Below, one piece after another: positions 3,001 to 8,541 of a stretch of DNA of 8,541 bases (positions are counted from its first letter, which is position 1; every line of letters begins with the position of its first letter). The stretch lies in the IMG/VR virus record IMGVR_UViG_2526164630_000042, positions 1 to 8,541 of that record; one strand, given 5' to 3'. Made by a program: the position numbers. Source of the DNA: a virus. Its lineage: Duplodnaviria > Heunggongvirae > Uroviricota > Caudoviricetes.

Positions 3001-6000
3001 GAAATTATGGGCTGCATCATAACATAAAAACATGGGACCCCTTGGTTAGAAATTAAGGATCCAAATATTATATATTTCATATAAAGCAAGGAAAATATTG
3101 CCTGAATAATTGTTCAGGCAATATATCCTTACATGGCACTATTATAATAAACTATTAATATAAAAACACACCAACAGAAAAAATTAAGCATCACTTGCAA
3201 CAAAGGCTTCTTTTTTTGAATCAAAGTGACATTCGTCTTTTCTCATGATCATTGATTCTGTTATAGGTTCTCGACTCAGAGGATGAGCTCCACCAGTTTC
3301 AACAAGTTGCACTAACGCGTCCTTATCATATAGAGAGCATATCTCAGCACCTCGTGAGTTTCTCATGAACACTCCATTCTCAGGTGTGTCCAGCGTTATC
3401 GGGCATGTCAAAAATGACTCCGGGCAAGAAAAGTGATTAGAATCCGGTCTAAATACACAAGAATTTATTTTTTCCATTAATATTTTATTACTTGTTTTAT
3501 TTTCTCTGTGTTCTGCCATGACACTCTGAAAATAGTTATTAACACTACTTAAAAAATCGACACCTCCATTTAATTGCCTTTCCAGAGCCACAGCCCTTCT
3601 CTCCATTCGATGCTCACGCCCCAATAGCCTATCCAGTAAGCCTCCTCTCACCGGTTCAACTGAAAATCCATCCAGTAGTTGGACATAGTGAACAGAATAT
3701 TGGCCACTACCAATGGATATTCTTATTCCACTTTCAAGTCTGGCTGCATCCTGCAAAGACTGCACTCCTGCAGGAGATAATTGAGATATACTTGGGATAC
3801 TTAAGGTGGTAACAGGCATAAAAACCTCATTCAGTAATTCATATCAGTTTGCAGGATGTTTCATTAAATAAAGGGTAATGTTCATTTCAATTACCCTTTA
3901 TAACGAAGTTTCCTCTGGTATCGTCATAAATGCGCATTCTTCATGTTTTACAATTATTGATGCCGTTATTGGTTCCCGGGTCAGTGGGTGGGGTAAGCCT
4001 TCACCAGTCAAACGAGAAAATGCAGCGGCATCAAATAAAGTACATACATCTGAACCATCTGAATTCTTCACAAAAATACCTTTTTCAGGCTGCTCCAGTG
4101 TAATTGGACATTGAAGCACCTCACCAGTACAGTGAAGTTTTTCAATATCAACAGTAAAGGTACATTCCGATATTTTGGCCTGCAGAGAGTTCTCTTGTCG
4201 TTGCGCCGCCATTCCAGGAAGCACGCTTAACATCCTGTTTCTGAGCGCATCAACTCCATCATTAAAAACAATATTCAATAATTCTGCATAAACCACTCCC
4301 AGCCCTTCACTTTCTGCTAAAAAACGGCCTGTATCTAGTATATAAGAAACTCTAACTCTCTCCCCACCCAGGAGAAATCCACCAATCTGCCCTTCCATTA
4401 CCTGCTGACGCATCTCCGCCATCTCATTCGCGAATGAGGTCGATGATATATATGATACTAATCCAGGCATTACCATATTCCTTCATACAGATAAATATTT
4501 CCTCTGGGCTTCATAACAAACATTCCCCATACATGACAACAAAAACCGGAGCCGGACTCCGGTTTTTGTGAAACTGTCGGCTATTTCATCCCGCCAATAT
4601 TTTCCCACGTCCCGTCAGCACGCAGGATTTGCAGCGGTCTTACCACGCACTGTATCTGCTTTTTATCCGCATCCAGTATCACCACCTGCGTGATTACCCT
4701 GTCCTGCTCCGGGATAATGCCATTCTCATCTGACTCCAGGATGTCTGCCGGCCCCAGTCGCAGCTGTGCTGTAAGTAACTCCCCGTGTTCACGGTCATCA
4801 TGCTTTCCGCAACCGCACAGACGCTGCATAAGTTTTTTTAGTACGTTCATGTCATTCTCCTGTTCTGCCTGTATCACTGCCCACTTCATCCAGCCCCTTG
4901 ACATCCTGCCACGGCCCGTCACCAAACCTGACCTGCAAATGCTGAAACAGCCCCTGAACCTGTGTGGCATCTTTGGGGTCAAGAAAGGTCAGTCCGGTGA
5001 TGAGCGCACCATCTGTACCCGGGAACCAGCCATTGCTGTTTGTCTCAATAATGCTCGCCGGCCCCAGACGAAAACGGATTTGTGTCTCCCCCGGGTCGCC
5101 CTTCGGTCCCTGAGGTCCGGTTGCCCCCACCGGGCCAGCCGCACCTGTTTCTCCTTTCGGTCCCTGTGGGCCTGCCGGGCCTGCCGCACCGGTATCTCCC
5201 TTTGGACCCTGTGGACCTGCATTTCCCGTCAGACCGGTCTCTCCCCGCTCTCCCATGTCACCTTTCGGCCCCTGCGGGCCTGCCGGACCAGCATCACCTG
5301 CCGGTCCCCGTTCGCCGGTTGCCCCGACAGGGCCGGTGTCACCGCGCTCTCCCTTATCACCCTTCGGCCCCTGAGGACCCGCGGGCCCCTGTTCCCCCTT
5401 TGGCCCGGGAGGTCCCACCACGGTGGGGATTCTGTTTACGGCTTCTTCCGCCGCTATCCTGCTTTGTTCCGCTGACTGTGCGCTTTCTGCTGACTCCCGG
5501 GCTTTTTCTGTTGCGGTCGTTGCATCCCTGGCTGCATTACCGGCTGCACTTTCTGCCGTCTTTCTTGACAATTCAGCTTCTGCTGCACTTTGTGATGACT
5601 CACTGGCTTTTTGAGCGGCCGCAGAAGCCGAGGACGAGGACGCCTCCTCTGACTGCTTTGCAGCGGCTGCACTTTCTGCCGCCTGCCGGGCTGACTCCGA
5701 TGCCTCCCCTGCTGAAGTGTCAGCATTTGCAGCGCTCTCTTCTGCCTGACTGGCTGATATGCCGGCATTCCTCGCGGACGTCTCCGCCTCTCCGGCATTC
5801 TTCTTCGCCTCCTCAGCGTGACGCGCCGCTCTTCCACCATCAGTTCAAAACGACGCAGTGCCTCCGGCCGGACGTCATCCTCCGACATGGCACCGAGAAA
5901 ATCATTCAGCGTACCGGGTTGAGAATCTTCATACACGGTGATGGTCCCGGCATGTGACGGCGGGAATCCCTCCACCAACAGAATGACGCTGTACTGACCG

Positions 6001-8541
6001 TACTCAACGTCCATGCTGTAACGACCGGCTTCATCCGGATTTTCAGAGGCCACCGTGTTCACCACCACCGTGCTGCTGGTCCGTCTGGCTTTCAGTTGAA
6101 TGGTGCAGTTCTCTACCGGTTTTCCTGTGCCGTCTTTCAGTACACCTGAAATCTTTACTGCCATATTCACCCCACAAAAAAGCCCGCCTGAACCGGCGGG
6201 CTGTCATAACACTGTGTTACCTGGCTAATCAGAACTTATAACCGACACCCACGATGAAACCGTCAGTGCGCCAGTCACCACTGCCGGAGCCTTCATAAGC
6301 AATATCAATGGCCACGGATTCGGTCGGGTTAAACTGCACGCCAGCCCCCCACGCCAGAGAGGTGTTGCTGTGGCGACCGTCATCACTTCCGGTCAGCACG
6401 TCGTGCGTTTTCCCCTTGTTGTCAGTTACGCGGAGATAATCCCCGGAGAAAGTCGACACACGGCTGTAAGCCACACCCGCCATCGCATACGCGCTGAACC
6501 ATTCATTCACGCGCACAGATGGCCCCGCCATTACGCTGAACCAGCGGTTACGCACGGAATCTTCATGCCAGCGGGTATCGCTGTAACGGGTAAGCTGGCG
6601 ATTCTTGTCTCCTGCATAGCTGAATGACGTCACCAGCCCCAGCGTGTCCGTGAATTCATAACGGTATTTCACGTTAATCCCGTTAAGATTATCGCTACCG
6701 GGAGCGTTCGTCCGGGCATGAAGATACCCCGCGCTCAGCGTGGCCTGCTGCTCAGACGCCCATGCAGGCGCACCGGATACGGTCAGACAAATGGCTGCGG
6801 ACAAAATGGCGGCATAAAGTTTACGCATAATTACCTCTCGCTTTTCTGCAATAAAAAAAGGCGTCATTTCTGACGCCCGTTCTGGGTTATAAAATTCAGC
6901 TGATACTGATACCTGCTGTGGCTTTCTTCATCACCACAACCAGCAAATCGCTGATACTTGCTGTGGGATACCAGTTATTCACCAGCCATGCTGATACCGA
7001 AAACTCCAGCGTCATGTGACCGTGACCGGCAGGCATATCAATAACGCCACTGTAAATCAGCGTATTATCCAGCGCGGTACGGCTATAAATTCAGCACCGT
7101 TTTCCGCACTATCAGACGGCATGAGGAGTAAATATCAGTATGCTCTCTCTCATGTTTAGCGCCGCTGAATGCCACCGCCGGAATAACAATCTGCCGGTCA
7201 AACGGCTGATCGTCATAAATCCTGACGGTAATGGTCCCTGATGGCCACCGTTCCGGTGCACGGGAGTCCCGGGGGAAAGCTTTGCCCACTGTTTTAACGA
7301 GATCGCCTTCAATCTGGTTCGCGGACAGTTTTCCCAGAACCCGGCAGTTCTCGTTAATCGTGACGTTGTTGAGCGTCCCGGAGTTCGCATTCACACTGCC
7401 ACTGATATCCGCATTTTTAGCGGTCAGCTTTCCGTCCGGTGTCAGGGAAATGCCGGAGGATTGCCGCCACTGGTAATGGTGGGAGCCGTCAGATATTTCA
7501 GGAACACTTCATTCATGAATATCTGATCACCCTGACCAACAAACATCGGCTTTGTGTTGCCATTTGCAGGATTAATCATCGCAATCCTGTCTGCCGCAGC
7601 AGCACCTGACTCTGCATGCCGTCGGGGGTGTTCTCAATACCGGCCCCGATACCCGCAATATAAAGGCGTCCGTCCTGCATCTGTTGCAGCTTCACTGCCC
7701 ACATGCTGTTCAGGTTATTATTTGTATCAACCTGAACCTTCTGTATCTGCTGAATTGCCGCACTCTGGTCTTCCAGTTTCTTATTGACGGTCTGTGTGAT
7801 TTCATTGCTGACATCCGTAATGGACGTCCTGATTTCAGCCAGGTCAGGCGCAAGCTGACCGTTATCAATCTGCGTCCACAACTCCTGAGCCAGATGGGTT
7901 TTCCCTATCTCGCCTTTGAAAAAATCCAGGTAACCTTCCGCATCATCGCTCGCCCGACCGACGGCCTCCACGAATGCCGATTTGCCAACGGTGTTCACAC
8001 TGCGGATATAAAAGTAGTAATCAGAACCCGGCTTAATATTGATACTGGCGGCTATCCAGTACATCCCCGTGCCAAGGTAGCGGGCTGTGGTTTCAACCTG
8101 CCTGATATCGGTAATCCGCTTTTCCGAGAACCAGAACTCAAACTGTACCGTCGGGTCATAAACCGCAAGATGCGGCGTGGCGGTGATCTGAAAATAGCCC
8201 GGCGTCAGCTCAATCCGCGACGGCGCTGTCGGTGCGGCAATCCGGAACGATACCGACGCAGGGTCTCCCTGCTGCCCCCGGGCATTTACCGCCCGGACTG
8301 TCAGCCTGTAGTTCCCCAGCGCCAGTTGCCTGAAGCGGTATGTGGTTTCCGCCGTCCGGGCCGTGCTGACCAGCCGCTCACTGCCGTCATCCGCGGCCAC
8401 GGTCAGGCGAAGCATGAAACTCACGCCCTTCACCACCTTCGGCGTGTCCCAGCGGGCCAGTACCTGATACTCCCCGCTGTCTGCGGTGACTTCGGCAGTC
8501 AGGTGCTGCACCGCTGGCGGCGTGACACCATTCACCGTGCC

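Follow-up and report, generated by a model that had tools for sequence, protein, structure and literature searches.

The side tail fibre gene on the 8,541-nucleotide (nt) stretch of Caudoviricetes DNA analysed here (the window; positions 1 to 8,541 of IMG/VR record IMGVR_UViG_2526164630_000042) was split by the loss of a single A after codon 112, and this loss most probably reflects an error in the consensus sequence of a 2012 draft, in prophage DNA that is repeated and lies close to a contig end. The gene itself encodes a side tail fibre of the ordinary EPclA type and belongs to a lambdoid Escherichia coli O45:H2 prophage that carries effector genes. Over its full length, the window was 100% identical to contig AIGX01000026.1 (GCA_000250155.2), of which it covered the final 8.5 kb up to 1 nt from the contig end.

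Reading frames and architecture of the fibre gene

On the minus strand, the gene appeared as two overlapping open reading frames (ORFs), 5454-6170 (238 amino acids (aa) from a GTG start, 236 aa from the ATG at 6164) and 4852-5571 (239 aa), as an earlier reading made without database searches (the sequence-only reading) had described them. The upstream ORF started at ATG 6164 with MAVKISGVLKDG… and encoded MAVKISG…RRFELMVEE, followed by an out-of-frame, Arg-rich tail (RRVTLRRRRRMPERRRR…), whereas the collagen triplets and the C-terminal domain were encoded by the downstream ORF, and the stop of the whole gene lay at 4852 (minus strand). The residues up to and including MVEE corresponded to the first 112 residues of the intact 437-aa protein, and the frame was lost from codon 113; the earlier estimate of about 112 in-frame residues was therefore exact. 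The parts of the gene were located as follows.

4852..6164, minus strand: EPclA-type (PfN-PCoil-Col-PfC) side tail fibre gene; from ORFs, the intact coding sequence (CDS) in SJ7, 2015C-3163 and 12009, Pfam and Ghosh 2012
5829..6164, minus strand: codons 1-112, PfN/lambda-StfN-like collar domain and linker, the only part in frame with the start; from PF08400 and PDB 9e7m
5829..5831, minus strand: frameshift site, codon 112 GAG versus GAA followed by GCG in the homologues; from alignment to SJ7 and 2015C-3163
5454..5828, minus strand: out-of-frame read-through of the coiled-coil region, 124 Arg/Gln/Pro-rich codons, with the stop at 5456-5454; from translation
5416..5829, minus strand: PCoil, Ala/Ser/Glu-rich, predicted trimeric coiled coil, residues 113-250, in the shifted frame; from composition and the EPclA analogy
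5083..5415, minus strand: collagen triple-helix region, 37 Gly-X-Y triplets, residues 251-361; from a regular-expression count, PF01391 and PDB
4888..5079, minus strand: PfC C-terminal trimerisation domain, residues 363-426; from PF06820

Comparison of 4852-6170 with complete E. coli genomes by megablast (the complete-genome searches covered 5,426 genomes) gave best matches with 99.9% identity, in which 1320 nt were aligned with the 1319 nt of the query. These homologues were annotated as one 1314-nt CDS, “prophage tail fiber N-terminal domain-containing protein”, and putting one base back into the window restored the same 437-aa protein. Base-level alignment with SJ7, the closest complete genome, located the sole difference inside the fibre gene beside base 5830/5831, where the window read ATGGTGGAAG-AGCGGCGCGT and SJ7 read ATGGTGGAAGAAGCGGCGCGT. 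The lost base was an A of the second GAA codon in GAAGAAG (intact GAAGAAGCGG, window GAAGAGCGG; the frameshifted allele at the fibre locus is also written GTGGAAGAGCGG), and codon 112 of the window, now GAG, still encoded Glu. The alignment thus confirmed the proposal of a single one-base deletion after codon 112, and alignment to intact fibre genes of related prophages, which had been suggested as the check, gave the one-base difference that was expected. The sequence-only reading had placed the missing base in a GG dinucleotide near 5829, which was right in position to within 2 nt but wrong in the identity of the base; its repair (GAG GCG) nevertheless yielded the same protein as the true allele. 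A two-frame arrangement shared by the homologues, which had been named as one observation that would speak against this proposal, was not seen among the close homologues, all of which were single-frame. One continuous frame through all four parts of the fibre failed in the window and held in every close homologue.

The four parts were each recognised on the intact allele. PF08400 (PfN) matched residues 1-133 with E = 6.3e-69, and on the truncated product of the window it matched residues 1-112 with E = 2.9e-64; the N-terminus was also homologous to residues 1-93 of Ur-lambda gpStf (PDB 9e7m chain Ta, E = 2e-51). Residues 113-250 formed a segment of 138 aa with 45 Ala, 24 Ser and 21 Glu (65% Ala/Ser/Glu). 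The longest Gly-X-Y run contained exactly 37 uninterrupted triplets and was matched by PF01391 (collagen, E = 4e-18) as well as by collagen entries of the PDB, and the distinct C-terminal domain, the last 76 aa of the protein, matched PF06820 (PfC) at residues 363-426 with E = 3.6e-36. Since Pfam domains were matched by both ORF halves with E-values of 1e-19 to 1e-64, the two-ORF pattern was not due to chance. The lambda-Stf-like N-terminus, the Ala/Ser/Glu-rich segment, the roughly 37 collagen-like triplets and the distinct C-terminal domain of the sequence-only reading were all recovered in this way. The mosaic was not a new architecture but equals the published EPclA type, so that this type of fibre gene is already known (Ghosh 2012). 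With a break after residue 112, the collar and the linker would be kept, and the whole shaft and both trimerisation modules would be lost.

Two long antisense ORFs on the plus strand, 5082-5957 (291 aa) and 4690-5475 (261 aa), crossed the coding region of the collagen and the coiled coil. They are by-products of the repetitive, GC-rich composition of this region. On contig AIGX01000026.1, the 291-aa antisense ORF was called by the gene caller of the collection in place of the split fibre gene.

Private differences near the contig end

The frameshifted allele was searched for in genomes, contigs and proteins. A 61-mer carrying the fibre deletion had no exact match at 3576 places in 744 of the 5,426 complete genomes, and every copy there contained the extra base. 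The corresponding 30-mer had no match in the viral, GTDB species-representative genome or metagenome contig collections, and the intact 31-mer was present in 98 contigs of the viral collection. The junction of MVEE with RRVTL was not found in any of the 5.8 billion protein sequences searched; the products of 236, 238 and 239 aa were likewise not on record when looked up by exact match, and the gene caller of the collection had not called them. As a test for an inherited pseudogene, the 61-mer and junction searches therefore showed that the same lesion was absent from related genomes. Complete ORFs through the site in IMG/VR contigs encoded 437 aa in 38 of 79 cases; most of the others were in-frame length variants, and about 18 were truncated by frameshifts elsewhere.

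Frameshifted versions of 236 aa were numerous in the protein database, each with a different junction; the closest were mostly singletons, and their named sources included other DEC drafts. A one-base deletion anywhere in the coiled-coil region leads into the same alternative frame and to the same stop, with the shared tail …KKPGSQQKAHSQRNKAG. Many unrelated frameshifted copies are therefore exactly 236 aa long and could be mistaken for a protein family. One 250-aa truncated variant of the fibre gene had 35 member sequences, and because of this number real inherited frameshifts probably exist in the fibre family.

The window derived from a bacterial draft genome. Contig AIGX01000026.1 (81.9 kb) broke inside the tail tip gene J, the window ended at contig position 81894, and a 103-aa J fragment was found on this contig only. 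A break at such a place is a typical repeat-induced assembly break. NCBI protein names assigned the contig to E. coli DEC11C, O45:H2, clonal complex 20, one of the DEC collection drafts of 2012, which are probably 454/Illumina data; this assignment fits the nearest complete genomes, which were O45:H2 and O103:H2. Best matches in the phage collection reached only about 95%, which indicates that the window is not a deposited phage record. At another DEC-era draft contig end (L117), J was likewise in four pieces.

The 8541 nt of the window differed from SJ7 at 11 places. None of these lay outside 5831-7598, and bases 1-5830 and 7599-8541, 6.8 kb in total, were identical. Five of the differences were one-base deletions, each of which shortened a base run: GG to G at 7598, TTTT to TTT at 7451, AAAAA to AAAA at 7100, AAA to AA at 7092 and AA to A at 5831. 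These lay 0.9-2.7 kb from the contig end, the fibre deletion at 2.7 kb. The others were a change from T6 to T7 in the J-lom spacer, four substitutions in the signal-peptide region of lom and a substitution at 7083. Two features of the window contained the differences outside the fibre gene.

6896..8541, minus strand: 3' portion of the tail tip gene J, in four ORFs because of four further private losses of one base (7598, 7451, 7100, 7092); from ORFs and SJ7 alignment
6772..6859, minus strand: patch in the lom signal-peptide region and J-lom spacer with four substitutions and T6 to T7; allele of paralogous prophages, not of the orthologous copy

In SJ7, J was a single intact CDS of 3480 nt, and a 66-mer with the 7100 and 7092 deletions had no exact match at 4085 homologous places in the complete genomes. 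A 71-mer of the lom/T7 patch was found exactly in 350 complete-genome records, so the patch was not private; its allele was that of paralogous prophages in genomes of the lineage that also carry the orthologous prophage (CP027219.1, CP101302.1). The patch represents either gene conversion or a chimeric consensus. After its removal, five deletions and one rare substitution were left as private changes. All changes fell within 4514-8541, a region of which paralogous prophages of this lineage carry further copies; the prophage DNA around the fibre deletion is present several times in each genome. Under a uniform-mutation model, the scan statistic gave P ~1e-6 for 11 differences in one span of 1.77 kb and ~0.002 for the six private ones. 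With indels taken as about 10% of spontaneous mutations, the probability that five of six private changes would be indels was ~5e-5. Sites that vary between paralogues were looked for beside the deletions as a sign of mixed pile-ups; one (C/T) was present 3 nt from 5831 and none was beside 7092 or 7100, and this was not used as evidence.

The extra T in the J-lom spacer also produced a spurious, N-terminally extended Lom ORF of 212 aa (6229-6867), which was called in the drafts AEZT02 and AEZS02 as well.

Origin of the deletions

Sequencing or assembly, rather than mutation, was most likely the cause of the deletions, as judged from the nearness of the contig end, the repeated surroundings and the clustering of private deletions in base runs, and the interruption of the fibre gene was probably not biological. 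An assembly error had itself been listed by the sequence-only reading among the outcomes that would speak against its proposal. If the consensus was mixed and of low quality in this repeated DNA close to a contig end, this would account at once for the clustering, the shortened base runs and the patch of paralogue type, and a lom patch with the allele of a paralogue is what a mixed consensus would give. Neutral decay does not account for these three together. Several points weigh against a consensus error. The 943 nt next to the contig end contained no differences from SJ7, and the unique part of the contig was error-free, so the assembly was not generally poor. Real inherited frameshifted copies of the fibre family probably exist, given the 35-member variant of 250 aa, and the one-base frameshift in stf of lambda PaPa is a classic real one.

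It is unlikely, although it deserves to be considered before the other alternatives, that the deletion is real and that the window represents a decaying, immobilised prophage copy kept for its type III effector cargo, in which J and the side-fibre gene were lost by slippage. Only a 236-aa product, consisting of the collar domain and 124 nonsense residues and unable to trimerise or to form a fibre, would then be made. Frameshifted fibre genes are genuine in lambda PaPa and probably in the 250-aa variant, pseudogenes do occur in this prophage, as shown by the genuine 2-bp frameshift that a nearby NleG gene shares with SJ7 and 12009, and base runs, where the deletions were found, are also the places where true slippage happens. 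But the deletions that were tested (5831, 7100 and 7092) occurred in none of the 5,426 complete genomes, near-identical O45:H2 and O103:H2 relatives included, and five indels against one private substitution within 1.8 kb, with 6.8 kb identical, are unlike neutral decay. The location at a contig end in repeats, with a paralogue-type patch mid-way between the deletions, is better explained by a mis-called consensus. The same patch could be read in another way, with all five -1 deletions and the lom change being real products of error-prone (Pol IV-type) synthesis during recombinational repair or gene conversion between paralogous prophages, so that both the central (J) and the side (EPclA) fibres of the effector-carrying DEC11C prophage were inactivated in one event. 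The paralogue allele at 6772-6859 and the private -1 deletions on both sides of it within ~1 kb agree with such an event, but a consensus of mixed reads predicts the same pattern, the draft contig end favours an artefact, and the k-mer searches of complete E. coli genomes gave no independent occurrence; this explanation is very improbable. Least credible of all is a functional two-frame arrangement, in which a programmed -1 ribosomal frameshift or transcriptional slippage would give the full fibre or two products. The only point in its favour is that the frame would be regained if one base after codon 112 were read twice. The site, GGAAGAGCGG (G GAA GAG CGG), contained neither an X XXY YYZ slippery heptamer nor a long A/T run or homopolymer, each close homologue was single-frame with the extra A, and the frameshifted copies elsewhere were broken at unrelated positions. 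Programmed frameshifting or recoding was rejected on the lack of both a slippery motif and conservation.

The split gene carries little biological weight. Experiments had already described this type of fibre in 2012, and draft E. coli assemblies repeatedly contain split copies of it. Unless reads support it, a frameshift in the J, lom or fibre module of an enterohaemorrhagic or enteropathogenic E. coli draft should count neither as a pseudogene nor as a sign of prophage decay, above all close to contig ends in repeated prophage DNA. If the deletions were true, the prophage would lack both central and side fibres and be immobile, which would bear only on the mobility of the NleG/EspW cargo in one strain.

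Neighbouring genes, fibre model and known relatives

The genes beside the fibre gene were arranged as follows, those at 1-4476 forming the effector cargo at the prophage end. This cargo was identical to that of SJ7, in which the prophage end abuts yecD and aspS.

4581..4850, minus strand: 89-aa gene with a second PfC (PF06820) domain; from Pfam and BLASTP against the fibre C-terminus (39% identity, E = 1e-14)
3898-4476, minus strand: NleG/DUF1076 gene
3184-3819: NleG/DUF1076 gene
1998-3056: EspW
1269-1919: NleG/DUF1076 gene
495-1085: “bfpT-regulated chaperone”
1-249: DinI-like gene

The 89-aa gene started 2 nt past the stop codon of the fibre gene, in the position held by Tfa in lambda, and consisted of a short leader and PfC; in SJ7 it was annotated as “phage tail fiber C-terminal domain-containing protein”. 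The NleG gene at 3898-4476 contained a 2-bp insertion at 3934-3935 relative to 2015C-3163, which was common to SJ7 and O103:H2 12009 and was annotated “frameshifted”. Unlike the private deletions, this is a genuine pseudogene of the lineage.

By homology, the mechanism of the intact fibre appears reasonably clear. In the Ur-lambda virion, twelve gpStf N-terminal domains form a collar round the gpV/gpM junction, and StfN consists of a collar (1-91), a linker (92-101) and a coiled coil from residue 102. The homologous PfN would anchor the fibre as a collar round the junction of tail tube and tip, the Ala/Ser/Glu-rich trimeric coiled coil and the collagen triple helix of 37 triplets would form the shaft, and PfC would trimerise the C-terminal end as a distal knob. 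In experiments, EPclA, the EHEC prophage collagen-like protein A, proved to be a trimeric, dumbbell-shaped fibre of about 50-60 nm in length, with constructs PfN-PCoil 1-250 and PfC 363-426; its PCoil is α-helical, PCoil and PfC are the trimerisation modules, of which PfC trimerises in vitro, and its collagen helix melts at 42 °C (Ghosh 2012, PMC3368898).

The fibre of the window shares with lambda Stf (Ur-lambda gpStf, PDB 9e7m) the homologous collar domain of ~93 residues followed by an Ala/Ser-rich coiled-coil segment, and the gene likewise lies downstream of J and lom; in lambda PaPa, stf is also split by a one-base frameshift. The distal halves differ, with collagen and PfC here and a hinge, a gp37-like distal coiled coil and an OmpC-binding tip in lambda, and the downstream gene encodes a PfC-domain protein (sole Pfam match PF06820) instead of the Tfa chaperone. 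In Stx-converting lambdoid phages (VT1-Sakai H0004, Stx2a phages), the module of J, lom, fibre and PfC gene was ~95% identical in DNA, but their records contain intact genes, and NleG/EspW effectors take the place of stx here in the part of the prophage that was seen. The closest likeness is to EPclA (e.g. ECs2717 of O157:H7 Sakai), with the same four-part architecture and matching boundaries (PfN-PCoil 1-250, Col from 251, PfC 363-426), the Ala/Ser/Glu low-complexity PCoil region, the single uninterrupted collagen domain and the place after J and lom. The copy in the window differs from it by the lack of one base after codon 112, whereas the intact allele differs by ordinary allelic substitutions only.

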